From NCBI GenBank assembly GCA_947367255.1, contig CANBCZ010000003.1, forward strand, positions 53,612 through 117,611: DNA of 64,000 nucleotides, given 5' to 3'. The DNA is from an uncultured Alistipes sp. GTDB taxonomy: Bacteria > Bacteroidota > Bacteroidia > Bacteroidales > Rikenellaceae. Positions 7,450 to 63,360 of the stretch are shown here, piece by piece (within the stretch, counting starts at the first letter, position 1; each line of letters opens with the position of its first letter). Position numbers and translations under genes: made by a program. Under the pieces are notes generated by a model. The model was not told the origin of the DNA. It worked only from the letters and a program-made list of their open reading frames with translations, and searched no databases.

Positions 7450-7571
7450 TTTGTTGTCAAAAGTGCGTAGCTGTGGTATATCGTGAAAAATCCCCGGATG
7501 GGTTGTACTATGTGTACTACTCATTCGGGGATTTGAGGGATATGCCGCAGATGCTGGCTTTTCACAACAAA
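7450..7571 (+). mobile_element. T1 hairpin element (122 bp, 13-bp TIR)
   Basis: tttgttgtcaaaa ... ttttcacaacaaa; central stem aaatccccggatggg/ctcattcggggattt with GTAC-N-GTAC apex. Confidence 0.7.
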
Positions 7572-7591
7572 GAATATTTTTATAAAAAATA

Positions 7592-7623
7592 TTTGCTTTT
7601 TACAATTAAAAGCACTACTTTTG
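7592..7623 (+). promoter_or_regulatory. Bacteroidetes sigmaA promoter of rimP-nusA-infB
   Basis: TTTG (7592-7595), 20-nt spacer, TACTTTTG (7616-7623). Confidence 0.7.
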
Positions 7624-7639
7624 TGGTGTGAATGAATGG

Positions 7640-7666
7640 AAGGGGACGAAAAAGTCCCCTTATTTT
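7640..7666 (+). promoter_or_regulatory. rimP leader hairpin (probable attenuator)
   Basis: aaggggac-gaaaaa-gtcccctt followed by attttg in the 5' UTR; terminator-like leaders are known upstream of rimP. Confidence 0.55.
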
Positions 7667-7700
7667 GTACCTTACGAGAAACAAATAACAACATAAAGCT

Positions 7701-8165
7701 ATGGATATCAACAAGTTAATAGAGGTAGTAGAGCAGCATCTCGAGGGCAGCGATGTGTTCGTTGTGGAGTGCACCTCTACCCCATCGAATGAAATTTCAC
7801 TCACTTTGGATGCCGACAGCAGAGTTACTATCGACACCTGCGTTGCCGTTTCACGTGCTGTGGATGCAGTATTTGACCGCGACGTGGAGGATTTTTCACT
7901 CACCGTAGCATCTGCAGGTATTGGCGAGCCGCTCAAGCTGTTGCGTCAGTATCACAAGATTGTAGGTTCTCCTGTTGAGGTACTTCTCAAGGATGGTATC
8001 AAGATTTTGGGTACCCTTGACGAGGCGAATGAGGCGGGCATAACTATCTCTTACGACGAGAAGGTTGCTGTTGAGGGCAAGAAGCGCAAGGAGTTGCAGC
8101 ACATTGTTCGCACAATAGCTTTTGAGGATATCAAGACTGCCAAGGAATATTTAGATTACAAATAA
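7701..8165 (+). CDS. rimP: Ribosome maturation factor RimP
   Basis: DFSLTVASAGIGEPL motif; upstream of nusA. Confidence 0.93.
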   Translation: MDINKLIEVVEQHLEGSDVFVVECTSTPSNEISLTLDADSRVTIDTCVAVSRAVDAVFDRDVEDFSLTVASAGIGEPLKLLRQYHKIVGSPVEVLLKDGIKILGTLDEANEAGITISYDEKVAVEGKKRKELQHIVRTIAFEDIKTAKEYLDYK

Positions 8166-8182
8166 TATAAAAAGCAAAGACA

Positions 8183-9502: not shown

Positions 9503-12166
9503 ATGGAGAACGAAACAAAGAAATTACGCCTTATTCAAGTAGCAAAGGAGTTCAAGGTGGGTCTTAACACCGTTACCGACTTCTTGCGCAAGAAGGGTGT
9601 AGCTATCGACGGCTCGCCCAACACACAGATTAGTGGAGATATCTATGCAATGGTAGAGAAGGAGTTCGGTGCAAACCGCACTTCAGGCTCTGCACGCGAC
9701 AATATCCGCGAGAAGATCTCAACAAAGCAGGCTACCGTATCTATCGAGGAGCCTAAGGCTGAGCCTAAGCGCACCATCGAGGTTAAGGACGAGGTACAGC
9801 AGCCGAAGATTCTCGGTCGCGTAGAGCTCGACAAGAATGGCAACATCGTGAAGCCACAGCCAAAGGCTGAGCCTAAGCCGGAGCCAAAGCCTCAGCCAAA
9901 AGTAGAGCCGAAAGTAGAGCCTGCACCTCAGCCTGCACCACAGCCAAAGGCTGAGCCTGTAGCTGTTGAGCCAAAGGAGAATGGTGCATTCCGTGCTACT
10001 GCTACCCCAACACTGAGCGGTCCTCAGATTTTGGGTAAGATTGACGTATCGGGTATGGTTCCCGGTGGCAAGCGTCGTAAGAAGATTGACAAGGAGAAGG
10101 TCGATATCACTCGCCAGCAGCAGCCTCAGCAGGGCGGCGGCAAGAAGAATCGTCCAGACTTCAAGCAGAATAACAACAATAACAACCAGCAGAATCAGCA
10201 GCAGGGCGGTGGCAAGAAGAACAAGCATCAGAAGCCACAGCCAAAGCCTGTAGTTCGTCCGGAGGTATCGGATGAGGAGGTTTCAAAGCAGGTAAAGGAT
10301 ACCCTTGCTCGTCTGACTGCAAAGGGTGCCAAGAATAAGGGTGCCAAGTACCGCAAGGAGAAGCGCGAGGAGGTACAGCAGCGTATGAACGAGGCTGTAG
10401 AGCGCGAGGAGATGGAGCGCAAGGTGCTCAAGGTTACAGAGTTTGTAACCGTGAGCGAGCTTGCAACAATGATGAATGTATCTCCGATGGAGGTTATCTC
10501 GGCTTGTATGAACCTCGGACTTATGGTATCTATCAACCAGCGTCTGGATGCAGAGGCTCTCGTAGTGGTTGCCGAGGAGTTCGGCTTTACCACCGAGTTC
10601 GTATCTGTAGAGATTCAGGAGGCTATCGGTGACGACGAGGTAGATGAGGCAGAGGATCTGCTCCCACGTCCGCCAATTGTAACCGTAATGGGTCACGTAG
10701 ACCACGGTAAGACCTCGCTGCTCGACAATATCCGTAAGACCAACGTTATCGCCGGCGAGGCGGGTGGTATCACCCAGCACATCGGTGCATACTCTGTTGA
10801 GCTGAATGGTCAGAAGATTACATTCCTCGATACTCCGGGTCACGAGGCGTTTACAGCGATGCGTGCGCGTGGTGCGAAGATTACCGACGTTGCAATTATC
10901 ATCGTTGCGGCTGATGACAGCGTGATGCCTCAGACTATCGAGGCTATCAACCACGCACAGGCTGCGGGCGTACCTATGGTATTTGCAATCAACAAGATTG
11001 ATAAGCCGGCTGCAAATGTTGAGCGCATCAAGGAGCAGCTTGCAAATATGAACTTCCTCGTTGAGGATTGGGGCGGTAAGTACCAGAGCCAGGATGTCTC
11101 TGCAAAGCAGGGTCTGAACCTCGACAAACTCCTTGAGAAGGTGCTTCTCGAGGCGGAGCTTCTCGACCTTAAGGCAAATCCTAACAAGCGCGCTAAGGGT
11201 GCCGTTATCGAGTCTACACTCGACAAGGGTCGTGGTTATGTAGCAACTGTCCTTGTTCAGGATGGTACACTGCGTATCGGTGATGTAGTACTCTCGGGTA
11301 CATACACCGGTCGTGTAAAGGCTATGTTTGACGAGAATGGTAAGAAGGTTACCGAGGCAGGACCTGCAACACCTGTACAGTTGCTCGGTCTTAACGGTGC
11401 ACCACAGGCGGGTGACTCATTCAACGTTATGGAGGATGACCGCTCGGCTCGTGAGGTGGCAAACAAGCGTGAGCAGCTTCAGCGTATGCAGGGTCTGATG
11501 ACTCAGAAGCACGTAACACTCGACGAGATTGGTCGTCGTATCGCTATCGGTTCGTTCAAGGAGCTCAATATTATCGTTAAGGGTGACGTGGATGGCTCTG
11601 TAGAGGCTATGTCAGGCTCACTGATTAAGCTCTCTAAGGAGACTGTTCAGGTAAATGTTATCCACTCTGCCGTTGGTCAGATTTCGGAGAGCGACGTACT
11701 GCTCGCAACTGCTTCTAACGCAATTATCGTCGGCTTCCAGGTTCGTCCGTCGGCTGCCGCTCGTCGTCTTGCCGAGAAGGAGGAGATTGAGATTCGTCTC
11801 TACTCTATCATCTACGACGCAATCAACGAGATTAAGGACGCTATCGAGGGTATGCTCGAGCCGGTAATGAAGGAGGAGATTGTCTGCTCTGTCGAGGTAC
11901 TCGAGACCTTCAAGATCTCTAAGGTCGGTACTATTGCCGGTGGTATTGTTCGCGAGGGTAAGATTCAGCGTAACACCCCTATCCGCGTAATCCGTGACGG
12001 TATCGTTATCCACACCGGTCGTCTTGGCTCTCTCAAGCGTTTCAAGGACGATGTTAAGGAGGTACTGACAGGTCACGACTGCGGTCTGAACATCGAGTCT
12101 TACAACGACATCAAGGTCGGCGATATTATCGAGGGCTACGAGCAGGTCGAAGTAAAGAGAAAGTAA
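9503..12166 (+). CDS. infB: Translation initiation factor IF-2
   Basis: [34 protein letters not shown]; start set at MENETKK. Confidence 0.98.
9854..10240 (+). repeat. Low-complexity P/K/E and Q/N coding repeats in the IF-2 N-terminal linker
   Basis: [33 protein letters not shown]; [11 protein letters not shown] ... [17 protein letters not shown]. Confidence 0.8.
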
Positions 12167-12198: not shown

Positions 12199-13512
12199 AT
12201 GATTAAGTTTGTAACAGCAGAAGAGGCTGTAAAGGTAATCAAGTCAGGTGATCACATTCACCTCAGTTCAGTTGCATCGGCACCTCAGTGCCTGATTAAG
12301 GCTATGTGCGACCGCGGTCGCAATGGCGAGCTTAAGGATGTACACATCCACCACCTCCACACAGAGGGTCCTGCGCCATACGCAGATCCTGAGTTCGATG
12401 GCGTATTCCAGCTCGATTCATTCTTCGTGGGTGGTAATGTGCGCAAGGTAACCCAGAGCGGTTATGCTGACTACATTCCAATTTTCTTGAGCGAGACACA
12501 GAAGCTCTATCGTAGTGGCGCAGTGCCTTGTAATGTAGCTATGATTCAGGTATCTACACCTGACAAGCACGGCTATGTATCTCTCGGTACATCTGTAGAT
12601 GCTACTCTGGCAGCTGTTGAGTGCGCAGATCACGTAATTGCAGTTGTGAACAAGTATGTTCCACGTGCATTCGGTGATGCAATGATCCACAGCTCAAAGA
12701 TCGAGTTCTTCGTAGAGGACGATCAGCCACTCGAGGAGGCTCACTTCGCAGCTCCAAACGAGGTTGAGACTAAGATTGGTAACCTCTGCGCAGGTCTTAT
12801 CGAGGATGGTGCTACCCTTCAGATGGGTATCGGCGCTATTCCTAACGCAGTACTCGCACAGCTGGGTAACCACAAGAACCTCGGTGTTCATACCGAGATG
12901 TTCGCTGACGGTGTGCTCCCACTCGTAGAGAAGGGCGTAATCAACGGCGCAGCAAAGAATATCGATAAGGGTAAGATGGTATCTACCTTCCTTATGGGTT
13001 CACAGAAGGTTTACGACTTTATCGACGACAACCCGGGCGTACTGATGATGGACGTAGGTTACACTAACGACCCATTCATCATTGCAAAGAACGACCGCGT
13101 AACTGCTATCAACTCTGCTCTGCAGGTAGATATCACCGGTCAGGTTTGCGCTGACTCTCTCGGTCGCAAGTTCTACTCAGGCGTAGGTGGTCAGGTAGAC
13201 TTTATCTATGGTGCATCACTCTCTAAGGGTGGTAAGGCTATTATCGCAATGCCTTCTATCACTAATAAGGGTGTATCTAAGATCTCTGATGTTCTTACCG
13301 AGGGTGCAGGTGTTGTTACAACTCGTAACCACATCCACTGGTTCGTTACTGAGAATGGTGCTGTAGATCTCTACGGCAAGAGCCTGCAGGAGCGTGCTCG
13401 CCTTATCATCTCTGTTGCTCACCCATCAGCACAGGAGGCTCTCGACGAGGCTGCATTCAACCGCTACGGCAGCCACCACCACTATATTAAGGGGTATATG
13501 GACAAGAAGTAA
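12199..13512 (+). CDS. Acetyl-CoA hydrolase/transferase family CoA-transferase (Cat2/4-hydroxybutyrate CoA-transferase-like)
   Basis: LQMGIGAIPNAVL, HTEMF, INSALQVDITGQV, SGVGGQVDF, VTENGAVDL. Confidence 0.9.
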   Translation: MIKFVTAEEAVKVIKSGDHIHLSSVASAPQCLIKAMCDRGRNGELKDVHIHHLHTEGPAPYADPEFDGVFQLDSFFVGGNVRKVTQSGYADYIPIFLSETQKLYRSGAVPCNVAMIQVSTPDKHGYVSLGTSVDATLAAVECADHVIAVVNKYVPRAFGDAMIHSSKIEFFVEDDQPLEEAHFAAPNEVETKIGNLCAGLIEDGATLQMGIGAIPNAVLAQLGNHKNLGVHTEMFADGVLPLVEKGVINGAAKNIDKGKMVSTFLMGSQKVYDFIDDNPGVLMMDVGYTNDPFIIAKNDRVTAINSALQVDITGQVCADSLGRKFYSGVGGQVDFIYGASLSKGGKAIIAMPSITNKGVSKISDVLTEGAGVVTTRNHIHWFVTENGAVDLYGKSLQERARLIISVAHPSAQEALDEAAFNRYGSHHHYIKGYMDKK

Positions 13513-13574
13513 TCTTTGCGGTTACTTATCTATATGCAAGGCTTTCTCTTCTGGGAAGGCCTTCTTTTTACCCC

Positions 13575-13655
13575 TTAATATAGTGGTGTAAACACCACCT
13601 TTTGTGTTACCTATCCCCCAAACCCCCTTTCTGTAAAGGGGGCTTCTCGCTACGC
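13575..13655 (+). repeat. Degenerate direct repeat copy 1 (TTAATATAG-GGTG/CACC hairpin-CCCCC/GGGGG hairpin-GCTACGC)
   Basis: Aligns by eye with 13767-13855. Confidence 0.7.
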
Positions 13656-13732
13656 TCCAATTAAGGAGTTATACCTTAGAGTACAATATATCAAAAGCTA
13701 TATGAAGAAGTAAGCATTTCTTCGTATAATCA

Positions 13733-13762
13733 CAAAGGTCTCCCCAAAAGGAGACCTTTGTT
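13733..13762. terminator. Terminator-like hairpin between the two repeats
   Basis: caaaggtctcc-ccaaaa-ggagacctttg. Confidence 0.6.
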
Positions 13763-13766
13763 GCTT

Positions 13767-13855
13767 TTAATATAGCGGTGGTGCCAAAAAACACCACCTT
13801 CTTTTATGTTACCCACCCCCTAAATCCCCCTCCTGTGAGGGGGACTTTGCTACGC
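13767..13855 (+). repeat. Degenerate direct repeat copy 2
   Basis: ttaatatagcggtggtg...caccacc...ccccctaaatccccctcctgtgagggggact..gctacgc. Confidence 0.7.
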
Positions 13856-13884
13856 AGTACATTTTGAACAAGCCCCCAAATATA

Positions 13885-13916
13885 TTTGCTCGTTCAGAAA
13901 TAATTTTTTAACTTTG
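13885..13916 (+). promoter_or_regulatory. Bacteroidetes sigmaA promoter
   Basis: TTTG (13885-13888), 20-nt spacer, TAACTTTG (13909-13916). Confidence 0.75.
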
Positions 13917-13920
13917 TAGG

Positions 13921-14204
13921 GCAATCCTCGGATTGCAGACATATTATTAGTGAAAGTGTTTCGCTAATCCTTATTGAGAAATCTGGTAAATTTCAAATGT
14001 ATCAAGGATAACGAATGCTTACATCACTTGTATTAGTATGCTATGTAGGCACATTCTGTGCCTACATAGCATACTATACAGGTGTGGAGTATTGTTTATT
14101 TGATACAAGGCTTACCAGAGCCTCTCAATAGATAAACGAACATCTCCACACTTTCTTTATTTTATAATCCGCCTAATGGAGATAGGGCGACAAAACTATT
14201 TTTT
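13921..14204 (+). ncRNA. Long structured 5' leader / candidate cis-regulatory RNA
   Basis: Nested inverted blocks from 13952 to 14155 ending in a perfect 20-bp stem (14034-14053/14057-14076); alternative stem 14082-14099/14132-14151 followed by a U-rich tract. Confidence 0.55.
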
Positions 14205-14654
14205 ATGAAAAAGTTTCTACAATTTTTTATCATTGCAGTAGTAGGTTGCTGCGTTAGCATTTCTTGTGAGAAAGAAAATGCAGGAGGTATAGGAAGTATG
14301 GAGGATCTTGTAGGCACATATTCTGTTAATTTAGAACAGAACATTGTGTGGGGAGGAGACTCGGGAACAGCATATGATAGCGGAACAATTACTATTACCA
14401 AGACATCTGGTAATAGAGTTAAATTAAGAGGATTTATTTCAACCACAGGAGAACTTATCAATGGTAAACTTCATCTGGATTCAAATACTAGCACAGACAG
14501 CTATGGATATCTAACAACAACATATAACAGCGTCATATTTGGAGGTGGTATTATAACAATATGGGCAAGGACATCAGGTCAATTGGCAACAACTCCATAT
14601 GGAACTAAATACTCATTTAGCAGTCTTGATTATTTTGAAGGCAGGAAATACTAA
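14205..14654 (+). CDS. Hypothetical surface lipoprotein (AT-rich, beta-rich, possibly lipocalin-like)
   Basis: Signal peptide II ending ISC followed by EKEN; own promoter; stop followed by a hairpin. Confidence 0.75.
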   Translation: MKKFLQFFIIAVVGCCVSISCEKENAGGIGSMEDLVGTYSVNLEQNIVWGGDSGTAYDSGTITITKTSGNRVKLRGFISTTGELINGKLHLDSNTSTDSYGYLTTTYNSVIFGGGIITIWARTSGQLATTPYGTKYSFSSLDYFEGRKY

Positions 14655-16009: not shown

Positions 16010-16170
16010 TTTGGCGTCAGAACGCTGCGATTAAGCCGAAGGCAGAGTGTGCTTGCACGCTATGCTGAGGCGGAGCAGTGAAGGGTCGCCGTAGGCGAGC
16101 CAATGGGGCAGATACTCCGCTCGGCATATAAAACAGCAAAGGGCTGTACTATGCGTACATCCCATTGCAG
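16010..16170 (+). repeat. Composite hairpin element (T1-like left end, C module and GTAC module)
   Basis: aacgctgcgattaagccgaa..tgctgaggcggagcagtgaa shared with 5530-5590; gggctgtactatgcgtacatccc core. Confidence 0.65.
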
Positions 16171-16212
16171 GTGGTTAGGGGTGGACCAAAGTGGTACACT
16201 TCAATAATTACC

Positions 16213-16337
16213 TTTTGTTGTCAAAATGCGTTAGAGATGGTGCATCGTAAAAAATTTCAGTCGCGGATAGTACAAAACGTACAGCCGCGACTGAAATTTA
16301 AGCGATGTGCCATATATGACACATTTTCACAACAAAA
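16213..16337 (+). mobile_element. T1 hairpin element abutting the ppiD stop codon
   Basis: 15-bp TIR with 1 mismatch; perfect 15-bp stem aaatttcagtcgcgg/ccgcgactgaaattt; stop codon at 16338-16340. Confidence 0.75.
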
Positions 16338-18362
16338 TTAGAAGTAGCCTACAGTATTATCCTCTACCTCCGCCAGCTCCTGAACTGCATAGAAAGCACG
16401 AGTTGCTGACTGCTCGGCTGCTGCCTGCTGCTTAACCTGCTCAGCCTCGAGAGTCTGAGCCTCATCAGCAGCGGTTACACCGTCGGTAACGAGTACAAAT
16501 ACACCGCTTGCACCCTTTACAGGAGCAGAAACAGCGCCCTGCTCGAGAGCAGAGATAGTACCGAGTACGCGTGGCTCAACGCCGATACCCGGGATATAGT
16601 AAGCATCGTACTTAACATTCTCGAAGGTCTTAACCTCTGACTCTGCAGCTGCAGCAACCTCCTCGATAGTAGCACCTGCCATCTTTGCAGCAATCATCTC
16701 GAACTTCTTGTCGCGGAGCAGAGTGCTCTTAATCTGAGCAGCAACCTCGTTTACAGAGCGGTACTCGCTGTCGGTAATGCCTGTAAGGGTTGCAACTACA
16801 TAGTGGTTGTTATCAAGCTTGATAAGCTCAGAAACATCACCAACCTTAGCCTTGTTAGCCCAGAATACAACCTCGAGAGAGTGACCGTCGATACCGCGAA
16901 CAGAACGAGCAGCCTTCTCGATAGTAACGGTGCGTGAAGCCTGACCCTGAGCAGTAGCAGTAGCGTCGAAGCCCTCCTTTGCAGCAGAGACTGCGAAGAG
17001 GCTTGCTGCGTTGTGAACATCACGCTGAGTAGCCTGTGATGCTACGAGCGGATAGCTGAGTGTAGCGAGCTTATAGTGCTTCTGGATTGCGCTTACGCCA
17101 TCAACCTTGAGGATCTGGATAACATTACCCATAGAGATCTTAACGATATCACCCTTCTTCTTACCGAGCAGTGCATCTGCGAACTCAGGAGCGAGAGTAG
17201 AGTAGGTAACCTCACCAATCTTACCACCCTCAGCAGCAGTCTCTGTAGCGAGTGAGTACTGAGCAGCGAGAGCAGCGAAATCGCCCTTCTTTGCAACAGT
17301 TACGAGGCTGTCAGCGAGCTTATCGTCAGTGTAGTTGAGAACGATGTGGCTGAGAGTATACTTCTCTGCAACATTGCGAACATCTGCTACGCGAGCTGCA
17401 CGCCACTCGTCAGCAACGAGTACAGGACCGTACATCTTGCCCTTAGTAAGAGCTGCGCTCTCCTCAGAGGTCATCTGAGCAGCGGTGATATAGCTCTGAG
17501 CAACTGATGCATGACGGTTCTCACGAGTGTAAGTCTTGAGGTCAGAAACTGTAGCGAACTGCTCTGCAGCAGCCTTAGCCTCAGCCTCGATAGCAGCCTT
17601 ATCTGCATCGGTAGCCTCAACATTGAACTCAACATAAGAGATTGTGCGGAAAGGAGTACGCTTGTACTGAGCCTTATTTGCCTTGTAGTAAGCCTTGATC
17701 TCGCTGTCAGAAACGGTTACGAGAGAGTCTGCAACAGTGTTGTAGCGGCTAACAACATAACGACCGTTGTAGGTGTTGTTTGCGCTCTTTACACCACGCT
17801 CAACCTCAAGCTTATTTGCATAAGCGCCCTTCTGAACAAGTGCCTGATACTTCATCATAGCACGATCGAGGTCAGCCTGCTTGCTGAAGAATGACCAAGC
17901 CTTCTGTGCCTGTGGGTTATTCTCTAACTCTGCAAGGAAAGCTGCTACAGCCTCAACATTGTACTCACCTGTCTGTGGGTTACCAAAGAGGCTTGACATA
18001 ACATTGCTTGCACGCTCACCACGAACAAGAGCCTTGTGCTCTGCCTTACCTACTGCAAGACCGAGCTCCTCGAAGCCTGGGGTAAATACGTGGTCAGAGA
18101 GCAGAATCTGCCAAGTGTTGGCAAGAGCCTGCTGAGCCTGCTCATCTGTAGTGAGCTCGCCCATCTGAGCCTTAACATCGTCATAAGCTGCAAGGAACTC
18201 AGAGTAGTGAATATCCTTGCCATTGATTGCGCCGACCTTAGGGTCATTGCCTGAAAATCCCATCTCTGACTTCAGAGAGAAGATAAACGCCAAAAGCGCG
18301 CCTGCAATAATTACAGAGAGCAGTACGCCGAATTTGGTTCTCATTGTGTTCAAACTTACCAT
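16338..18362 (-). CDS. ppiD: PpiD/SurA-type periplasmic chaperone (peptidyl-prolyl isomerase family)
   Basis: N-terminal TM anchor, SurA_N-like region, rotamase-like HIVL..GDFAALAAQYS..EGGKIG; conserved position after the CBS/gldE gene. Confidence 0.8.
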   Translation of the reverse strand: MVSLNTMRTKFGVLLSVIIAGALLAFIFSLKSEMGFSGNDPKVGAINGKDIHYSEFLAAYDDVKAQMGELTTDEQAQQALANTWQILLSDHVFTPGFEELGLAVGKAEHKALVRGERASNVMSSLFGNPQTGEYNVEAVAAFLAELENNPQAQKAWSFFSKQADLDRAMMKYQALVQKGAYANKLEVERGVKSANNTYNGRYVVSRYNTVADSLVTVSDSEIKAYYKANKAQYKRTPFRTISYVEFNVEATDADKAAIEAEAKAAAEQFATVSDLKTYTRENRHASVAQSYITAAQMTSEESAALTKGKMYGPVLVADEWRAARVADVRNVAEKYTLSHIVLNYTDDKLADSLVTVAKKGDFAALAAQYSLATETAAEGGKIGEVTYSTLAPEFADALLGKKKGDIVKISMGNVIQILKVDGVSAIQKHYKLATLSYPLVASQATQRDVHNAASLFAVSAAKEGFDATATAQGQASRTVTIEKAARSVRGIDGHSLEVVFWANKAKVGDVSELIKLDNNHYVVATLTGITDSEYRSVNEVAAQIKSTLLRDKKFEMIAAKMAGATIEEVAAAAESEVKTFENVKYDAYYIPGIGVEPRVLGTISALEQGAVSAPVKGASGVFVLVTDGVTAADEAQTLEAEQVKQQAAAEQSATRAFYAVQELAEVEDNTVGYF

Positions 18363-29125: not shown

Positions 29126-29305
29126 AGTACAAGATTATGGATTTTTGTCTACTCGAAGACAATTTTGTGATACAGAGAGATAAAAAGAACTTTTTAGATG
29201 CTAAAGGTTGTATAACAAGAGGGATTTCAAGCACGAGAGTAACGCAGAAATCACCTTGTTAGGCAAGCTTCGACCGAATAGATACTTCCCACTCTCAATA
29301 ATAGG

Positions 29306-29463: not shown

Positions 29464-29499
29464 AGTTGTAAATATTAATGATTAAACAATAGTGTCAAA

Positions 29500-43512: not shown

Positions 43513-43671
43513 ATGAAAAAGTATCGTTGTATTGTTTGCGATTGGGTCTATGACCCTGCAGTCGGAGATCCTGACCACGGCATTGCTGCCGGAACCCCAT
43601 TTGAGGAGCTACCTGATGATTGGGCTTGCCCGCTATGTGGCGCCGGCAAAGAGGATTTCGAGGAGGAGTAA
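43513..43671 (+). CDS. Rubredoxin, 52 aa
   Basis: Hand translation [52 protein letters not shown]; two CxxC motifs. Confidence 0.97.
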
Positions 43672-43706
43672 CAAAAAAACAGAGCAGTCGCTCTGTTTTT
43701 TTTGTT
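43670..43706. terminator. Bidirectional terminator
   Basis: aacaaaaaaacagagc-agtc-gctctgttttttttgtt. Confidence 0.85.
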
Positions 43707-43726: not shown

Positions 43727-43815
43727 TTTGGCGTCAAAACGGGGCGGTAGTTCGATTAAAACAACAACCGATTTGTCGTCAAAACGTGTTAGAGATGGTG
43801 CATTTTCACGGCAAA
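43727..43815 (+). mobile_element. Internally deleted T1 element preceded by an extra T1 left end
   Basis: atttgtcgtcaaaacgtgttagagatggtgcat joined directly to ttttcacggcaaat. Confidence 0.6.
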
Positions 43816-43821
43816 TACAAA

Positions 43822-51129: not shown

Positions 51130-51198
51130 AAAAGCGCATGCATCTGCATACGCTTTTTAATGCTATTGGCTTGTTGGCTTTCAGCTGCAAAGAATTTG

Positions 51199-51425
51199 TT
51201 TGAAGCTGCTCGTAGGTCTGAAAAGCGGAGTTTACTTTGTCGTAAATGAACATTTTCAGAACAAGGCAGATGCCAAAAGAGCCTTGTTAGACCTTTATTA
51301 CTTTTATAAGAATTTGTATAACAAAAGCTATTTTGAAGCTGCTCGCAGATCTGAAAAGCGGAGTTTACTTTGTCGTAAATGAGCATTTTCAGAACAAGGC
51401 AGATGCCAAAAGAGCCTTGTTAGAC
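51199..51425 (+). repeat. Tandem pair of 94-bp hairpin elements (51199-51292, 51332-51425)
   Basis: 3 differences in 94 bp; core ctgaaaagcggagtttac-tttgtc-gtaaatga(a/g)cattttcag. Confidence 0.85.
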
Positions 51426-51434
51426 GAATTCTTA

Positions 51435-53367: not shown

Positions 53368-53371
53368 ACTA

Positions 53372-56105: not shown

Positions 56106-56211
56106 CTGTTAGCCTTACAGATGTATCCGCAAAGCGGATGAATATTTATATTTTTGCACTCCACACTATTTCTGCGCTGTTTTGTCAGAGAGTATAATCA
56201 AAGCGACGACC

Positions 56212-56338
56212 AATTTATTGTCAAAACATGTTAGCGATGGTGCATAGTGAAAAATTTCAGCCTCGGATAGTACAAAACGTACAACCGAGGCTGAAATTTG
56301 AGCGATGTGCCATATATGACACATTTTCACGATAAATT
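56212..56338 (+). mobile_element. T1 hairpin element overlapping the stop codon of the phosphoesterase gene
   Basis: aatttattgtcaaaa ... ttttcacgataaatt; perfect stem aaatttcagcctcgg/ccgaggctgaaattt. Confidence 0.75.
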
Positions 56339-59111
56339 ATTCCATTAGAGTGTAGTCGTAGTCAGCAGTAACCTCACTGCAAACATATTTGGTACCAAAA
56401 CGATCGGTAGCCTCAACACGAATATTGGTTGTGTTCGGATTTTTGAGGGTATACTTATACATATGGTAGCAAGCGTTCGAATATGAGCTATTCTTACCGC
56501 GACCAACTACGCCAATATGGTAGCCGATGCTCCACCAGTCCTGACTCGAGTCAGTAGGCACAAGGCACGGATAGTCACCCAGCGCGTCGGCATTGTACTT
56601 CTTTGCAGGGATGAGGCTCATAGTACCGCTAAGGGTGCCATCTTCGTAGACCTCAACCTTCCACGAGGAGTCTGCATTGAAGACATTTGCGAGCAGCACG
56701 CCGTGACCGAGCTGAGTATTGAAACTCTTGCTCGGAGTACCGCCCTTAATATCACCACGATAGAGGCGCATCTGGTAGTTGCGGTCGTCCATACCCTTAT
56801 TTACACCCATATAGTACCAATTCTTGATGGTAGCACCCTCAATGTCGTAGACGCCGTAGCCGTTAGGCACTCCATCGGCGTTCATATTGGACCACCACCA
56901 CTGACCGCACACTGCGCCGTGAACATGCTCATACAGACCACTTGACTCGATATTGCGACCATAGTGGGTATGACCTGCCATAATGTGAGCCTCCTTGAAC
57001 TGCTTGAGAAGGGCGATAGCGCTCTTTATATTGGCGTTACTTGAGGTCGAGATTGGGATATGCACGCAGAGGATAACGAGTTTATCCTTCGGCACAACAG
57101 CAAGATCCTGACGCAACCACTCGAGCTGCTCGTTGGTAAATGCTGTTGAGTATGAGCTCCAAGTATCGTTCTTGCTCCACTGCATAGTACGCATACCGAC
57201 AATATGCGCATCGCCACGATTCCACGAGTAGTTGATAGGTCCGAAGACAGTCTCAAATGCTCGCTGCGCCTTGATATTATAGGTCGAAGATGTTGCGTCG
57301 GCGCTAATCGGTTTGTTGGTGTGGAAGTATGTGTAGTCGTGGTTACCCATAACATTGAAGATAGGCATACCTGCCTTGTCTATATGCATCTTATCGCGCA
57401 TATCGTCCATAAATGCCTCATTATTTCGACTACCCTCCGAATAGACAACATCACCCAGAGTGGTACCATAGCAAGGTGCGCTCTTTGTTGCGGCGTGAGC
57501 CTTGATGGCAGGGATAGACTCGTTTGCAAAGCGGTCACCGTGACGACGACCCTTATTATCGGTTGCTGTATTATCCTTACACTGCGGATCGGCAAGGCAG
57601 AAGAGTGTAAAGGCGCTCTCCTTACCACCCGCAAGCTTTGTCAGAGTGAAGTTATAGACGGTATTCTTGCGGTCGTAGCGCGCAAAGAAGCAAGGCTGAC
57701 CGTAGTTATTTGTATCCACCTTACAATCTGCAGGCACAGAGTAGTAGATATACCAGCAATCCTTATGCGGGGTGATTGTATATTTACCCGCACTATCGGT
57801 CTTTACAACGCTATAGCCGTCAGATACTGCTACACCTGCCGCAGGAGTACCATCAGAGTAGGTTATAGTACCTGTAACATCAACAATCGGAGCCTCCTTA
57901 TAGGACTTGATAGATACACAGATATCATCGAGCATAAAGCGGTTGGTCTCTGTTGCACCCAGCGCACCACCGATAGCAATGGCAGAGGTCGAGGTGACAT
58001 CTGTAAGGGTCACTGTATACTCCTTCCAATCCGAGATCAGATCACCCTCGAGAGTCACATTCTGCTCCGAAGCAACACTCAGGTAATCTACGCTGTAGTT
58101 TGTGTTGTATGTAACATCTTTCAGAGCCTTTACGGTTATATAACGCTCGGCATCATTAACACTGCCATTCTCCATTGTTCCGTAGGTAACAGCCTTAAAC
58201 TTAACCTCTACAGTCGCCTCCTTATCATCAGGAATAGCAGAGAGCAATGGTGTACAGATAAATGAGCGGTTGGCAGTAGTACCGATCTTAACATAACCCG
58301 GACGGGCACATATAGAGCCACCTGTAGCACCACTCTTGCCGCCAATCCAACCCCAACCGTCAATACCGGCCTCATCCAGAATACCCTTGAGGGTATTGAA
58401 CAGACCAATCTCCACATCGGCACCTGTCATATAGTAGCCAGAGTTTGCTACAGTAATCTCTCCCTTGCAGTCGGCATCGCTAAACGAGTTGAGAGAGCCG
58501 CGATCTGTACGCGACAGACCGGCACCGCGAGAGGTTATATCGCCGGCATAGATAAGTCCGTCAAAGTTCTCAAAGAGGATAATGTCCGAAGGCTGCGCAT
58601 TTGTTGTAACGACACTCTTCTTGTCGGCTACCGATGCCTTGGTCACTACACGCAGCGCCTTTGCATTGGATGTGCCGTCTGTAAGGTTCTCAACCTTTAC
58701 ATAGTATGTCGTTCTCTGCTTAAGACCGGTAAATACAAAGCGTGGCGGACAGGTCTTGCTGTTATAGAGTGCCTTTGCATCCACCATATTCTCCTGAATA
58801 GGGCTTACGCTTACCTCTACATTTGTACACGCAGAGTTGTTATAGAGCGAAACTCTATACTGCTTTGTAATATCCTCCGAATAGTCTGCCTCGGGGCTCG
58901 GCTCAATCTGTCCGATATATGGCACATTGCTCTCGGTGATGGTCCAACCGATAGTAATTGTGCTATCTGTAGCCCTTACAACCGCTACATTAAGGTTAGG
59001 ATCTACCTCGACTGCAGGCGGAGTCTGAGTAGGTTCTTCGCCATTTGGCTCAGGGTTACAGGCAACCAGCAGAGCCGAAAGCGCGACAATTGATACTAAA
59101 AATCTCTTCAT
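56337..59111 (-). CDS. Lipoprotein with FN3-like, jelly-roll-like and calcineurin-like metallophosphoesterase domains
   Basis: Lipobox LVAC; LADPQ, LGDVVY, GNHDY, VHIP, GHTH; C-terminal GAVCGQWW..DGVPNGY. Confidence 0.88.
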   Translation of the reverse strand: MKRFLVSIVALSALLVACNPEPNGEEPTQTPPAVEVDPNLNVAVVRATDSTITIGWTITESNVPYIGQIEPSPEADYSEDITKQYRVSLYNNSACTNVEVSVSPIQENMVDAKALYNSKTCPPRFVFTGLKQRTTYYVKVENLTDGTSNAKALRVVTKASVADKKSVVTTNAQPSDIILFENFDGLIYAGDITSRGAGLSRTDRGSLNSFSDADCKGEITVANSGYYMTGADVEIGLFNTLKGILDEAGIDGWGWIGGKSGATGGSICARPGYVKIGTTANRSFICTPLLSAIPDDKEATVEVKFKAVTYGTMENGSVNDAERYITVKALKDVTYNTNYSVDYLSVASEQNVTLEGDLISDWKEYTVTLTDVTSTSAIAIGGALGATETNRFMLDDICVSIKSYKEAPIVDVTGTITYSDGTPAAGVAVSDGYSVVKTDSAGKYTITPHKDCWYIYYSVPADCKVDTNNYGQPCFFARYDRKNTVYNFTLTKLAGGKESAFTLFCLADPQCKDNTATDNKGRRHGDRFANESIPAIKAHAATKSAPCYGTTLGDVVYSEGSRNNEAFMDDMRDKMHIDKAGMPIFNVMGNHDYTYFHTNKPISADATSSTYNIKAQRAFETVFGPINYSWNRGDAHIVGMRTMQWSKNDTWSSYSTAFTNEQLEWLRQDLAVVPKDKLVILCVHIPISTSSNANIKSAIALLKQFKEAHIMAGHTHYGRNIESSGLYEHVHGAVCGQWWWSNMNADGVPNGYGVYDIEGATIKNWYYMGVNKGMDDRNYQMRLYRGDIKGGTPSKSFNTQLGHGVLLANVFNADSSWKVEVYEDGTLSGTMSLIPAKKYNADALGDYPCLVPTDSSQDWWSIGYHIGVVGRGKNSSYSNACYHMYKYTLKNPNTTNIRVEATDRFGTKYVCSEVTADYDYTLME

Positions 59112-59116
59112 ATTAT

Positions 59117-62100
59117 CTATTTAGTCATTAACGAATAGTCATAGTCGCCAATAATATCCGAACTTGAGTATGTTCTGCCAAAGCGGTCAGTAGCCTCAAC
59201 ACGAATCTTGGCACTCTTATTCTTTAGAGTATACTTGTACACATGGAAGCAGTTAGAGAGGTAATTTGTACGATTTCCACCGCTGTAACCACGACCCACA
59301 ACGCCAATATGGTAGCCGATAGCCCACCAATCCTGACTTGATGAGGTGCTTGGCTTTGTAGGATTACCTGCATCCGGAGTGGTCTTCTTATTAGGAATCA
59401 TAGTCATATTACCCGAATATGCGCCATCCTCATAGACTTTGATAACCCACTCCTTGTCGGCATTGAAGACATTTGCAAGCAGAACATTATCACCAAACTG
59501 CAGCTCGAACTTCTCGTATTCTCCACCACACTTCATGTTACCACGATAGAGGCGCATCTGGTAGTCACGGTCGTTCATACCATTATTAAAGCCCTTGTAG
59601 TACCAATTTGTGATTGTATTGCCGTCAATATCGTATACTCCATAGCCATTAGGAGCACCATCTCCATTGACTCTTGACCACCACCAGTTACCGCATACCG
59701 CAGCGTGAATATGCTCAAAGATACCACCCGAGAGTGTCGGCTCGTTACGAGAGTAGTGGGTATGACCCGACATAATGTGAGCCTCCTTGAACTGCTTGAG
59801 CAGCGCGATTACATTCTGAACATTCTTGTTGCTCGAGTTTGTGATAGGAATATGTACGCAGAAGATAACCATCTTATCCTTAGGCACATACTGCAGATCC
59901 TGACGCAACCAGTTGTACTGCTCGTCGGTAAAGCACATGGTATACTTAGACGCATCGGAGTTTGAGGTCCACTGCATATTTCGCATACATACGATATGCA
60001 CATCACCACGATCCCACGAGTAGTCGATAGGTCCAAAGACAGCCTCAAACTCACGCTGAGCCTTCATATTGTAGGTCGATGAGGTCTCATCGGCAGAGAT
60101 TGGAGAGCCCGACTGGAAGTATGTATAGTCGTGGTTACCCATTGTCTGGAAGATAGGCATACCGATATTGCTATTTGACATATGGGTACGCAGGTACGGC
60201 ATCTGAGACACGCAATTTCGTTTACCCTCAGAGTATGCCACATCGCCCAAAGTGACGCCATAGCAAGGTACACCCTTTGTCGAGATATGAGTCTTTACAT
60301 CAGGCACACACTCGTTATTGAAGCGGCTACGGTGTGTTGCATCCTTACACTGCGGATCGGCAAGGCAGAAGAGTGCAAACTTGCTCTCCTTGCCATTTGG
60401 CAGCTTCTTCAGGGTAAAGCTGTAGCCGGTCTGACCCTCTACATACTTTGCAAAGAATGCAGGCTGTCCGTAGCTGTTGATAGGCACCTGACAATCTGCC
60501 GGAACAGTATAATATATATAATAGGTATCCTGACATACGGTCAGCGAGTACTTACCCTCTGCATCGGTCTGAGTAACCTCAAAACCGTCAGATACAGATA
60601 CGCCTACAGCCGGTGTACCATCCTCATACGTGAGGTATCCGCTCACAACATCCACTGCAGGGGCATCCTCGAGTTTATCGACATAGATTCTCACATCGTC
60701 AAGCAGCAGTCGGCAGGTTGTTGTCGGTCCTGCGCCACCACCCAGCGAGATTGATGCACCTGATGGGACATTGGTAAGGGTGACGGTATACTCGCGCCAA
60801 TCCCAAATCTCCTGCGATGTAAGTTCAAACTTTTGCTCGCTCACAACGCCCTGATAGTTCATTCTGTAGTCAGATGCAAGCGACGGCTTTGCAAGTGCAC
60901 GAACACTCATCATGCGCTCACCCTCATTGGTCACATAGGCGTTTGGACTGCCGTAAGGGATTGCCTTGAAGACAATGCGCAGCGAGGCGACCTTATCCTG
61001 CGGAATAGCCGACAGCGCCGGAGTACATACATGCGAGCAGTTGTTAGCCGTACCAATCTTGAGATAACCGGTGCGGGCACATACAGAGCCACCTGTAGCG
61101 TCACTCTTGCCACCAATCCAACCCCAATTCTGGAAGCCATAGTCATCGACAAGGTTCTTCATTGTATTAAACAGACCAATCTCGGTACCAGACGGAGCGG
61201 CATAGAAGCCTGTGCTGCTTGATACAATCTCACCCTTGAGCGGAGCAATCTCGGTAAGTTTATTTCTATCTGTGCGAGATACGCCCGCTGCATAGGAGCA
61301 CATATCGCCGGCATAGATAAGGGATGCGAAGTTCTCGAAGAGAATCATATCACCCTCCTTGGCATTGCTCTTAACGACCTTTGCAGGGTCTACCACAGTC
61401 GCCGAGGTGGTAATCTCGACAATATTCGACTCATAGTCGTCGGTAGTATCCCACACCTTTGCATAGTACTTTGTGCTTGGAGCAAGACCTGTAAAGACAA
61501 AGCGCGGAGGATTGATTTTAGCAGTATATACAGACCCGCCATTGAGTTTATCGTCCTTAATGTCGCTTACGCTAACGATAAGGTCGGTACAAGCAGCATC
61601 GTTGTAGAGTGCCACCTTGTAGGTCTTGGTAATATCTACCGAGTAGTCGGCAGCCTCATTCGGACGCACCTGACTAAGATAAGGGACATTTGACGCAGTG
61701 ATAGTCCAGCCGATAACACCTGTAGAGTCTGTTGCACGGACAAACTTAGCAACAAGGTTACTCTGGGCAACATAGCAGCCATCCTCCAGCTGACCGAACG
61801 AAGCTACCTTTGTAAACTTTGTAACATCCAAATTGAGGGTGTAGATATAACCCGCCTCAAAGTTCTTTGTAGGTCGCTTGCAGAAGGTGTAAGAACCTCG
61901 GTTGGTCTTGACGATATAGAAGACCTTACCCTCAGATGCTGTCCACGCCACAGGGGCAACAAGTGCCCAACCATCGGTCGAAGTGCCTGTCTCCGGATTC
62001 TGGTAGTTTACGGTAACAGCACTCTCCGACGCCTTTGCAAGTGTAAGTGTGTTGATATCTACAGTTGCTCTTCCCGAGAGTTTGTCATTCTCGGCACTCA

Positions 62101-62737
62101 TAGTAACAGAGAGAATCTCCTCATTATCCGCCACCTTGATATTGAAGCGGGCAACAGATGCCAACATCTTAAAGTCGAATGTATGTCCGTTGTCGGATGT
62201 AGTACCGATCATAATATTACGCTCCTGATCGCTCTGACCGACAATATTCGAGTAGCGCTGTGCTGTCGGGATATTTACGCTCAGAACACCCTCAAAAGAG
62301 TCTCCCGCAGCACGGGTTTCATCCCACGGAGTCTCCACCTCACCGAGTGACGGCAGTGTCGCACCTGCAGAGGTGTTACTAAATATAGCCGCCGAGTATG
62401 GCGATACACCATAGAGAGGCTTTGAGTCACTGAATGTAACACCCTTAGATGTATCGGCAACAACAAATGTTCCTACATCGCTACCCTCTCCCGAGTCGAG
62501 GTTGTACTTGGCAATATTTTCACCATCTGTCACTGCAAGACAATCGGTGTGGTGCCAATAGATATTCAAATCACCATCCGTACCCAATACAGAGAAAGTA
62601 CGCGAATTGTCATTTGCAATCTTAGCCGTAAAGGAGTCTATCTTACGACCCGAAACAATATCCAGACTCTCCTCAGTATCGACACAAGCGACAGCCGCAA
62701 GCAGAGCCACTACAGAAATCAATAAAAATCTCTTCAT
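59117..62737 (-). CDS. Lipoprotein with fimbrillin-like N-domain plus the same phosphoesterase module
   Basis: Lipobox AVAC; FTAKIANDNSRT..W..D..V and GYIYTLNL fimbrillin-like pattern; LADPQ, GNHDY, GHTH. Confidence 0.85.
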   Translation of the reverse strand: MKRFLLISVVALLAAVACVDTEESLDIVSGRKIDSFTAKIANDNSRTFSVLGTDGDLNIYWHHTDCLAVTDGENIAKYNLDSGEGSDVGTFVVADTSKGVTFSDSKPLYGVSPYSAAIFSNTSAGATLPSLGEVETPWDETRAAGDSFEGVLSVNIPTAQRYSNIVGQSDQERNIMIGTTSDNGHTFDFKMLASVARFNIKVADNEEILSVTMSAENDKLSGRATVDINTLTLAKASESAVTVNYQNPETGTSTDGWALVAPVAWTASEGKVFYIVKTNRGSYTFCKRPTKNFEAGYIYTLNLDVTKFTKVASFGQLEDGCYVAQSNLVAKFVRATDSTGVIGWTITASNVPYLSQVRPNEAADYSVDITKTYKVALYNDAACTDLIVSVSDIKDDKLNGGSVYTAKINPPRFVFTGLAPSTKYYAKVWDTTDDYESNIVEITTSATVVDPAKVVKSNAKEGDMILFENFASLIYAGDMCSYAAGVSRTDRNKLTEIAPLKGEIVSSSTGFYAAPSGTEIGLFNTMKNLVDDYGFQNWGWIGGKSDATGGSVCARTGYLKIGTANNCSHVCTPALSAIPQDKVASLRIVFKAIPYGSPNAYVTNEGERMMSVRALAKPSLASDYRMNYQGVVSEQKFELTSQEIWDWREYTVTLTNVPSGASISLGGGAGPTTTCRLLLDDVRIYVDKLEDAPAVDVVSGYLTYEDGTPAVGVSVSDGFEVTQTDAEGKYSLTVCQDTYYIYYTVPADCQVPINSYGQPAFFAKYVEGQTGYSFTLKKLPNGKESKFALFCLADPQCKDATHRSRFNNECVPDVKTHISTKGVPCYGVTLGDVAYSEGKRNCVSQMPYLRTHMSNSNIGMPIFQTMGNHDYTYFQSGSPISADETSSTYNMKAQREFEAVFGPIDYSWDRGDVHIVCMRNMQWTSNSDASKYTMCFTDEQYNWLRQDLQYVPKDKMVIFCVHIPITNSSNKNVQNVIALLKQFKEAHIMSGHTHYSRNEPTLSGGIFEHIHAAVCGNWWWSRVNGDGAPNGYGVYDIDGNTITNWYYKGFNNGMNDRDYQMRLYRGNMKCGGEYEKFELQFGDNVLLANVFNADKEWVIKVYEDGAYSGNMTMIPNKKTTPDAGNPTKPSTSSSQDWWAIGYHIGVVGRGYSGGNRTNYLSNCFHVYKYTLKNKSAKIRVEATDRFGRTYSSSDIIGDYDYSLMTK

Positions 62738-62749
62738 AACTCCCCCTCT

Positions 62750-62893
62750 CTACCAAGCGTCGCCGCCATTATTATAGTCCAATATACTGTCTTTATCCGC
62801 TCCGGGTATGTTGTCAGGAATGTCAGACTCCGCAAAGCCACGCTCCGGAATAAACTGATAGGCTGCCACCTCTGGCTTTAAGTACTTTTTCAT
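62750..62893 (-). CDS. 47-aa leader-like peptide preceding the fimbrillin-like gene
   Basis: Hand translation MKKYLKPEVAAYQFIPERGFAESDIPDNIPGADKDSILDYNNGGDAW; promoter -7 box TATCTTTG at 62942-62949; 12 nt from the next ATG. Confidence 0.7.
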   Translation of the reverse strand: MKKYLKPEVAAYQFIPERGFAESDIPDNIPGADKDSILDYNNGGDAW

Positions 62894-63068
62894 ATAGGTT
62901 AAGTTTTAAGTGTTCGACTGTAAATATCCTAAGATATTTAACAAAGATAGGAATAAAAATTCAAAACACAAAATCCACGACAATTCTTAGGCTATTGGCT
63001 ATTAGCTATTGGCTTACCGATTATAGGAAGATTAGGAAATTTAGGAAGTTTAATTAATGTGACGCATT

Positions 63069-63188
63069 TTATCGTCAGAGTGCTGTAGTTGCGGTATATC
63101 GTGAAAAATCCCCGGATGGGTCGTACTGAGCGTACTACCCATTCGGAGATTTGAGGGATGTGCCGCAAATGCGGCACTATCACGATAA
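63069..63188 (+). mobile_element. T1 hairpin element, close relative of 7450-7571
   Basis: ggtatatcgtgaaaaatccccggatggg..gtac..gtactacccattcggagatttgagggat. Confidence 0.7.
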
Positions 63189-63244
63189 TACCAATTTGTT
63201 GTCAAAAGGTAGTAGAAAAAGCCTCAAACAACGCAATAGCTAAA

Positions 63245-63360
63245 TTGATTTTAGGCGAGAAATTTCCACGCTCGCTCTAAAAAACAACGAAGGGCTGTAC
63301 TGCGCGTACTGCCCTTTGTTGGAGTTTAGAGTAGCGGAAGAAATTTCCGCATAAAATCGA
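63245..63360 (+). mobile_element. T2-terminus hairpin element abutting the decarboxylase beta-subunit stop codon
   Basis: ttgattttaggcg ... ccgcataaaatcga; core gggctgtac-tgcgc-gtactgccc; stop codon at 63362. Confidence 0.7.

Follow-up and report, generated by a model that had tools for sequence, protein, structure and literature searches.

A family of long hairpin repeats docked at gene 3' ends in Alistipes, paired on one strand and compared with the REP/BIME palindromes

The spread and the role of repetitive extragenic palindromic (REP) elements and similar repeats have been debated for decades, mostly from proteobacteria. In the described systems, REP dimers are arranged head-to-head or tail-to-tail with head-to-tail pairs being rare, and the tetranucleotide CGTC/TGTC is the tag of one REP super-family (PMC3733652). 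The Bacteroidetes possess a class of REP-associated tyrosine transposases (RAYTs), TnpA_REP subclass 2.6, whose genes are bordered by "atypical secondary structures" recurring in the genome (Quentin et al. 2018, PMC6006769). Here, we present a Bacteroidota case from a 64-kb stretch of a contig (CANBCZ010000003.1) of an uncultured Alistipes species, which we term the window. It contains a repeat family whose unit of ~125–135 bp forms one long modular hairpin and occurs singly or in head-to-tail arrays. The family obeys sharp rules—docking at the last base of genes in 80–87% of arrays, a single contig-wide orientation, pairing on one strand, and the exchange of modules between strains of one gut species—which make the ideas of a terminator, an insulator or a selfish single-strand element testable. 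Searches of the literature found no description of this repeat family.

The earlier note on this DNA, which was made from the sequence alone, had placed six copies of a dispersed hairpin family in the window, and all six are found there both by direct reading and with a covariance model (CM) built from 94 copies. Of the copies in the window, five are full, one is internally deleted and one is divergent, and all seven lie on the + strand. The full copies are ~125–130 nt long with a mean column identity of 73% when aligned, score 109–140 bits with the CM on the + strand versus 50–68 bits on the - strand, and fold at -55 to -70 kcal/mol (z of -10 to -11.6 against dinucleotide shuffles). Their ends follow the degenerate consensus (A/G)(A/T)TTTGTYGTCARAR ... 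YTWTCACRAYAAA(W)(Y), with a conserved end-frame, TTTGTYGTC-ARAR ... YTWT-CACRAYAAA, which contains a fixed C.C mismatch where GTC faces CAC. They constitute terminal inverted repeats of 11–14 complementary base pairs, the terminal pairs of which covary. The end motifs that had first been noticed do occur far above chance, TYGTCAAAA for instance being present six times against 0.9 expected, always on the + strand; but they are degenerate, with three window copies showing TTATCG or TTATTG in place of TTG(T/C)(T/C)G, and the copy at 63063–63192 having GTCAGAG/CTATCAC. The apex written as GTAC-N5/6-GTAC is likewise genuine in the window (six instances of GTAC-N5-GTAC versus 0.6 expected, all on the + strand), but it is not a fixed site. 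In related copies it is a covarying 4-bp stem (GTAC/GTAC, ATAC/GTAT, GTAG/CTAC) and, hence, is to be seen as a stem.

The retention of the hairpin through compensatory change, as proposed at the outset, is borne out by pairing statistics on 94 distinct copies, for which the hairpin of the copy at 16209–16339 served as the template. Standard pairs account for 89.6% of the cells as opposed to 34–48% when the partners are slid, and compensatory changes on both sides are seen at 28 of the 50 base pairs. These changes total 682 cells against 219 in shuffles, with none of 500 shuffles reaching 682, though the shuffle control overstates significance due to the relatedness of the copies, a problem from which the slid-partner control is free. 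Covariation extends to every helix, the outer stem among them (TTGTTG/CAACAA, TTATCG/CGATAA, TTGTCG/CGACAA), the RNAalifold prediction agrees with the covariation, and the three central stem pairs quoted in the earlier note are correct. This pairing is preserved on one strand only. The + strand fold is the stabler one in 94 of 97 copies (mean of -67.7 versus -54.4 kcal/mol on the - strand), and G.T pairs occupy 513 cells versus 63 for A.C. Four positions are wobble-paired in 63–76 of the 94 copies with the alternatives being almost entirely Watson-Crick pairs, while the mirror mismatch was encountered there in one instance at one position. This strand-specific G.T pairing, along with the docking at gene 3' ends, the uniform orientation and the head-to-tail arrays, had been missed by the earlier note.

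The right end of the element is precisely placed with respect to genes. Counting an array as docked if an opposite-strand open reading frame (ORF) with 100 or more codons has its stop between -16 and +25 nt from the right end, we find 90 out of 104 evaluable arrays to be docked (87%), as against 2 of 83 left ends (2%) and 4.4% of random positions; this was replicated in independent metagenome contigs (24/30). A first tally of 96 single copies gives a distance between the right end and the stop of mostly 1–2 nt, and nine copies have the ORF continuing through the terminal TTTGTYG up to the TGA in the element's own GTGA, at which it stops. In two species, the right end also meets an opposite-strand tRNA-Arg(CCT) at its 3' end, with 0–1 base between them or shared (L030 119–316 and L060 4911–5108; such numbers denote the loci fetched from other genomes). 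Since these tRNA 3' ends are docked too, the feature that is recognized or selected is the gene end rather than the stop codon. The flanks have nothing in common beyond the stop codon. We also considered TA or the stop codon as a target, as the junctions seemed poor in TGA. However, these genomes use TGA for only ~10% of their stops, and the docked-gene stops (TAA 56%, TAG 29%, TGA 15%) are not significantly different from the genome background (54%, 36%, 10%; p = 0.24).

Five genes are docked in the window, namely those for a SurA/PpiD-like peptidyl-prolyl isomerase, a 135-aa protein, Dus, a metallophosphoesterase and OadB. The highest-scoring copy (16209–16339, 140 bits) touches the TAA stop (16338–16340, - strand) of the isomerase gene (16338–18362, identified with Pfam), which comes 2 nt after ...CACAACAA. 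The copy at 30017–30150 (121 bits) touches the stop (30149–30151, - strand) of the gene for the 135-aa protein (30149–30556), and that at 56209–56339 (124 bits) overlaps the TAA stop (56337–56339, - strand) of the metallophosphoesterase gene (56337–59111). The internally deleted copy (43767–43818, 33.8 bits, E = 1.4e-6) retains both ends and part of the left arm, is found in the same form in other strains, and lies 3–4 nt from the dus stop (43822–43824, - strand). At oadB there is a composite array. Its distal member is the full copy with GTCAGAG/CTATCAC-type ends (63063–63192, 113 bits, fold of -69.5 kcal/mol on + versus -51.2 on -), which is directly followed by a solo left-end sequence, TTTGTTGTCAAAAGGTAGTAG (63196–63215, + strand). 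The divergent long hairpin (63239–63364, 34 bits, E = 1.3e-6, -70.6 kcal/mol on + versus -62.1 on -), with different arms and the core GGGCTGTAC-N5-GTACTGCCC, touches the oadB stop (63362–63364, - strand). In L068 and L094, the oadB stop is touched by a canonical copy instead. The remaining full copy (7445–7574, 109 bits on + versus 50 on -, -69.2 versus -45.0 kcal/mol) touches no gene end, being situated 94 nt past the groEL stop, beyond groEL's own terminator and just upstream of the rimP promoter region. It has an ortholog in L051, and L128 and L129 retain only its last ~35 nt, a remnant in the groEL-rimP spacer that arose by deletion between ATATGC repeats. No other terminator was found at the five docked genes of the window, and at least nine other transcription-unit ends in it have a classic A-run/stem/T-run hairpin. 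The ordinary terminator form of this genome can also be seen at 43513–43703, where a 52-aa rubredoxin ORF (below the 80-aa cut-off used for ORFs) is followed by a textbook A-run/stem/T-run terminator. Separately, we observed that the docked metallophosphoesterase gene and its neighbor (59117–62737) are adjacent paralogs with MetallophosN and MetallophosC domains and DNA blocks of 71–83% identity, the longer paralog having an extra fimbrillin-like N-terminal part.

The copies are oriented uniformly along contigs: seven out of seven over 470 kb, and 5/5, 4/4 and 3/3 on others, with one contig switching once. Only 58% of the genes in these loci lie opposite to the element; hence, local gene orientation cannot explain the uniformity. 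Genes lying on the element's own strand have an occupied 3' end in just 2 of 236 cases. For an analysis of skew, 85 sequences (84 loci and the window) were turned so as to place the copies on the + strand, and the third-position skew was divided between a coding and a strand component. This shows the element's + strand to be rich in C (GC3 component of -0.060, bootstrap 95% CI -0.080 to -0.041) and in A (AT3 component of +0.084), with 63% of the codons on the other strand. Leading strands are usually G/T-rich and gene-rich. We infer that the well-paired + strand is the lagging-strand sequence and that the A.C-mismatched version is on the lagging-strand template, and we take the uniform orientation along contigs to mean that whole replication arms share it.

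Sites are occupied in all strains and species compared, and it is the filling that changes, module by module. Strains with identical HU, DUF4251 or RimP proteins differ in the filling of the same site. The stop of the gene for the 135-aa protein has at least four fillings (those in L019, L067 and L103–L112 being other than the copy at 30017–30150), two of which differ only in the central hairpin, while one has the standard end-frame around the arms of a second hairpin family. The region 56106–56336 exists in three intergenic versions among strains with an identical neighboring DUF4251 protein, and the last codon and stop of the metallophosphoesterase gene (56337–56345) vary with the version of the element (GAA TAA versus AAG TAG in a comparison of the window with L115 and L116). 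The final codon and the stop of some genes are altered by the repeats. Between species whose flanking DNA is 82–90% identical, orthologous copies differ by whole modules, which come from a limited number of discrete types. Within one genome, copies at different loci can be 98–99% identical; the matching stretch of such near-identical copies begins with the left end, or with an end remnant preceding it, and extends as far as ...CAAA(A), immediately ahead of the stop codon. On the pattern of these identities, gene conversion via the conserved ends would explain the near-identical copies as well as transposition. Copies also decay by internal deletion, and the deletion derivatives are present. 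No empty site was found in any strain comparison, with DNA metagenome contigs being uninformative on strain polymorphism as they break at the repeats. In one copy, L014 3651–3847, the half between the apex and the right end is present twice in tandem (matching at 3747–3778 and 3813–3844), which suggests slippage or one-sided copying.

A genome scan, using one genome per species and a pattern from the right arm, listed at least 100 matches. At least 87 of these are from gut-metagenome genomes of Alistipes/Rikenellaceae, chiefly from cattle, yak, goat, sheep, deer and buffalo, whereas 13 other matches among those listed are chance occurrences in unrelated taxa without the hairpin; all true matches among those listed, then, come from Alistipes/Rikenellaceae genomes from herbivore-gut metagenomes. 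A complete scan of the metagenome collection gave 35 true loci, and the window's own DNA recurs in bovine gut and manure metagenomes. A sequence profile detects 153 copies in the window and the 85 fetched loci. These group into 113 arrays—80 singles, 27 dimers, five trimers and one tetramer—and the 33 multi-copy arrays are head-to-tail, adjacent inverted pairs being seen only twice (L045 and L092). The family is thus high-copy (seven copies in 64 kb), extragenic and vertically persistent, with the same sites filled in several species, and at many gene ends it causes breaks in short-read assemblies of Alistipes from ruminant guts. The plasmid and phage collections yielded no match, and the three pattern matches in viral contigs were chance hits without a profile match. 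In Rfam 15, too, the repeat has no described counterpart: only a tRNA passes in the window, and the best sub-threshold match for the repeat is to a plant miRNA precursor model with 26.5 bits versus a gathering score of 117.

The copies are accompanied by further modules in a manner that resembles the mosaic build of the bacterial interspersed mosaic elements (BIMEs). One of these, the L-module, is a 40-nt sequence, TTTGCACTCCG-N~12-TGCAC-N2-ATTTGTYGTCARAG, which is often tandem and has two TTTG boxes at a spacing of 24 nt. Two tandem L-modules (TTTG[T/C]ACTCCG-N~12-[T/C]GC[A/G]C-N2-ATTTGTYGTC[C]AGAG) are found at 29915–29996 (+ strand), upstream of and co-oriented with the copy at 30017–30150, and a single one at 56154–56190 (+ strand), upstream of the copy at 56209–56339, is followed by the conserved spacer ATAATCAAAGCGACGACC; about 35 copies in other genomes are preceded by an L-module in the same orientation. 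Repeat-family detection and a motif search further revealed a left-end-like TTTTGGCGTCAGAACG along with remnants of the second hairpin family at 16010–16200 (+ strand). Within these remnants there is a solo GGGCTGTAC-N5-GTACATCCC hairpin (16137–16168), and their inner sequence is what fills the standard end-frame at the ortholog of the 30017–30150 site in L103, L105 and L107. This second long-hairpin family, represented in the window at 16010–16200 and 63239–63364, has the end-frame or the apex in common with the main family. A left-end-like TTTTGGCGTCAAAACGG (43727–43745, + strand) is located upstream of the deleted copy, and right-end 11-mers such as TCACGGCAAAT also recur in tandem.

We favor, with moderate confidence, the reading that this is a lineage-specific REP/BIME-like mosaic palindromic repeat, which takes the terminator position at leading-strand genes and owes its uniformity to recombination. 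By analogy, the family would have been spread by, or filtered by, a strand-specific process linked to replication. As long hairpins on the lagging-strand template are unstable, replication might tolerate only the orientation that puts the weaker, A.C-mismatched fold on that template, and if this were the only orientation to survive, only leading-strand genes would carry elements; alternatively, the copies could have been laid down by a fork-linked single-strand process. The right end is, by its position, tied to the gene boundary, and the hairpin is a putative 3' structure of the mRNA of the docked gene. On the other strand, where it is strongest, it may act as a barrier to transcription running antisense into the gene. 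The element would persist through filling the terminator position, and the tie to the gene end together with the replication filter would explain the sparing of lagging-strand genes. Recombination between copies could then give rise to the mosaics, the near-identical pairs and the conserved occupancy, with any enzyme that made the copies probably being encoded elsewhere or lost.

Several points weigh against this reading. The direction of replication is deduced from skew and gene bias rather than from a mapped origin, the spread of the family is argued by analogy, no new insertion event was found in the strain comparisons, and the ~1.1 Mb of element-bearing DNA yielded no enzyme for the family. 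The loci were fetched with a right-arm pattern, which biases the conservation of that arm upward; the right-arm GATRTGC, ATG and TCAC seem invariant only because they were required by the search pattern. The copies with GTCAAAA/TTTTCAC ends have a T4 run, but about half of the copies, those with GTCAGAG/CTATCAC ends, are without the T-run expected of an intrinsic terminator. Moreover, the strand under selection for pairing is antisense to the mRNA of the docked gene, and hence a role as an mRNA hairpin does not by itself explain the strand asymmetry. The metatranscriptome contigs are unstranded, break at repeats and palindromes, end near the hairpin centers and are informative as to presence only. 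Those continuous with the gene at 30149–30556 run 30–43 nt into the proximal arm of the copy at 30017–30150, and, taken together with those continuous with oadB of a related strain, they enter the proximal arm by 30–50 nt overall, with no RNA contig covering the distal flank of either element. They show only that the proximal arm is transcribed together with the docked gene. As a separate observation on these RNA data, contigs reach a depth of 800–1000 at 29400–29487, just downstream of the HU stop (29500), which is far above that of the HU coding region in the same runs; this peak may be a stable 3' untranslated region fragment or a small RNA.

It is possible, if a good deal less probable, that the fold, the docking and the orientation are parts of one system working by an undescribed mechanism. 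This could be a replication-coupled single-stranded DNA (ssDNA) element with homing to the exact 3' limit of genes on the leading strand, for proteins as well as for tRNA. It could also comprise promoter-equipped units for long-hairpin RNAs, placed head-on at gene ends, which stop or process convergent transcription.

The hairpins might instead belong to a REP system proper—i.e., of REPINs (REP doublets forming hairpins) and RAYTs—as the very "atypical secondary structures" of TnpA_REP subclass 2.6 (RayT), cut and copied as ssDNA at the replication fork. Such a system would account for the uniform orientation, the strand-specific fold, the lack of target duplication, the high copy number and the long persistence of sites. 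The subclass 2.6 genes with their recurring flanking hairpins are known from this phylum, a homology search indicates that the PF01797 RayT-like family is large in the Bacteroidetes, and the ends of our element contain the CGTC/TGTC tag. Nevertheless, we consider this unlikely. The 50 sizeable ORFs of the window, when compared with Pfam, are housekeeping genes or have no match, with no transposase, integrase, HUH domain or RayT-like match among them, in agreement with the earlier note, which had seen no cognate enzyme there. A regular-expression search for the Y1/HUH motif was negative throughout the ~1.1 Mb of element-bearing DNA, i.e., the window, 654 kb of genome loci and 450 kb of metagenome loci. 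A Bacteroidetes RayT-like query, used as a lead only, retrieved 7,990 PF01797 proteins with up to 77% identity, mostly from Flavobacteriia, but tblastn with 12 of the retrieved proteins gave nothing in the window or any locus. The proposal to count the family in more genomes bore fruit with the copies in Alistipes/Rikenellaceae; no RAYT or other transposase gene was found in the ~1.1 Mb. The supplement of PMC6006769 has no Alistipes entry, and the hairpins flanking a Maribacter RayT locus are short (15–20 nt) and unlike this family. Furthermore, the arrays are head-to-tail; the foot is TTTGTYGTC with its CGTC/TGTC base-paired in the outer stem, rather than the unpaired 5' GTAG/CGTC of REPs; and the fold-competent strand is on the inferred leading-strand template, whereas IS608-type enzymes use the lagging-strand template.

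Equally doubtful is the proposal that these are small RNA genes, in which the L-module would be a Bacteroidetes-type promoter driving a ~125-nt + strand hairpin RNA that ends at the neighbor's stop, the RNA being the product. As in structured RNAs, the G.U pairs and the covariation favor the + strand, on which the CM score is ~60–70 bits higher than on the - strand. The L-modules are always upstream and in + orientation, the nearby HU promoter, TATATTTGTCGCCG, has a -7 box and start region that the left end resembles, and half of the copies have A4...T4 around the hairpin in a terminator-like form. The -33/-7 promoters of the Bacteroidetes do have TTTG boxes with a like spacing of 24 nt. However, their consensus is reportedly TAnnTTTG, and the L-modules are without its TA. 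Many copies follow another copy rather than an L-module. The two regions with RNA contigs show the gene-proximal right arm and almost nothing over the L-modules or the left arm, and the free-standing copy at 7445–7574 has no RNA contig at all. The uniform contig orientation and the head-to-tail arrays are also unexpected of small RNA genes, and there is no matching Rfam family.

One could also do without any mobility, with the elements being ordinary bidirectional terminators that descend from a few ancestors, became similar through gene conversion, and were dispersed by local duplication alone. The terminator position, the conservation of sites across species, the identity between copies that ends at the conserved termini and the swapping of modules are all in keeping with this, as is the failure to find an enzyme, a target duplication or an empty site. 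Yet the presence of at least 113 arrays at unrelated genes demands a way of first reaching each site, and the orientation runs of 7/7, 5/5 and 4/4 exceed what 58% of opposite genes would produce. With lagging-strand gene ends occupied in only 2/236 cases and half of the copies being without a T-run, we rate it as rather improbable.

The earlier note had suggested an active or recently active element of the MITE (miniature inverted-repeat transposable element) or REPIN type. That suggestion is only partly supported: the dispersed, covarying hairpin family is borne out, whereas for the activity no target duplication, no empty site and, in the ~1.1 Mb, no transposase was found. A classical MITE would derive from a DDE-type insertion sequence by internal deletion, bear terminal inverted repeats and be moved in trans, and the length of 125–135 bp, the inverted repeats of 11–14 bp and the dispersed copies, some of them 98–99% identical, are reminiscent of one. 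This is very improbable given that no direct repeat indicative of a target-site duplication was seen at 83 junction pairs, TA being present on the left only in a minority, and that the whole unit, and not just its ends, is a covarying hairpin with a strand-biased orientation and precise docking at gene ends. Moreover, neither a transposase nor a parent insertion sequence with matching ends was found in the 1.1 Mb, and the family is absent from the plasmid, phage and viral collections. Finally, attC-like sites, i.e., folded single-strand substrates of an integron-type integrase, would also be imperfect palindromes of such a length directly after stop codons, with a structure conserved over a varied sequence, strand-specific features and an orientation tied to replication, but this is close to refuted by ends that do not fit the RYYYAAC ... 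GTTRRRY core sites, flanks of syntenic housekeeping genes (groEL, infB, mfd, dus, oadB) rather than cassettes, the lack of an integrase in the window and a hairpin that is convergent on the gene instead of co-oriented in a cassette array.

The window also has other repeats. An intergenic hairpin at 29–155 (-51.9 kcal/mol, z = -7.8) overlaps the stop of a dTDP-glucose 4,6-dehydratase-like gene (140–1276, - strand); its segment 104–139 recurs at 29222–29257 with 89% identity, and it therefore belongs to a further repeat family. A near-perfect 110-nt hairpin (13998–14107, -61.7 kcal/mol, z = -10.7) in the 692-nt gap at 13512–14205 shows no sequence relationship to the main family, and its CM score is only 18.7 bits. 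The spacer at 51129–51435 contains a 94-nt tandem duplication (51199–51292 and 51332–51425, 133-nt spacing, 97% identical), which includes TTTTCAGAACAA, a near match to the right end of the family. Within a coding region, that for the N-terminal part of translation initiation factor IF-2, a run of 21-nt repeats (9746–10255) specifies a PKAEP-like motif.

The family works like the REP/BIME and ERIC/Correia-type repeats of proteobacteria, yet it departs from each type compared in a defining feature. Like bidirectional intrinsic terminators, the elements come directly after the stop, have an A-run and a T-run around a strong stem in about half of the copies, and stand in place of the classic terminator at docked genes. 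Unlike them, they are 3–4 times longer, constitute a repeated family, are co-oriented along contigs and are without a T-run in the other half. With the IS200/IS605 elements and their miniature derivatives, the palindrome-associated transposable elements (PATEs), they share the lack of terminal duplication, the dependence on hairpins and a fork-related orientation bias. Those elements, however, have subterminal hairpins that differ between left and right and a fixed target of 4–5 nt, while here there is one symmetric hairpin, no fixed target, stop usage at the background level and no TnpA in the ~1.1 Mb. The enterobacterial repetitive intergenic consensus/intergenic repeat units (ERIC/IRU, 127 bp) and the Neisseria Correia elements are similarly imperfect palindromes of ~100–150 bp in transcribed intergenic regions that fold in mRNA. 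They are marked by orientation-dependent effects on transcripts, and the Correia elements can also carry promoters. In contrast to our family, in which there is no duplication and a uniform orientation, they duplicate a TA target and occur in both orientations, and no sequence similarity to them was seen.

The REPIN-RAYT systems of Pseudomonas and Enterobacteria offer a parallel in their long hairpin-forming non-autonomous repeats, the graded similarity of copies within a genome and long vertical inheritance. A REPIN, though, consists of two inverted palindromic REPs, as opposed to the non-palindromic arms seen here, docking at gene ends is not known to have been described for REPINs, and there is no RAYT in the ~1.1 Mb. 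The REP/BIME repeats of E. coli and its relatives differ in that their REPs are of 30–40 nt with a 5' GTAG foot and are arranged head-to-head or tail-to-tail. The Alistipes hairpins are of 125–135 nt with TTTGTYGTC/CACRAYAAA ends, are head-to-tail and stop-docked in one orientation, and no association with TnpA_REP was found in the ~1.1 Mb. Yet the two have in common that they are high-copy extragenic palindromes at the 3' ends of transcription units, form mosaic arrays with short motifs, have strand-specific mismatches, do not duplicate their target, and persist at orthologous sites.

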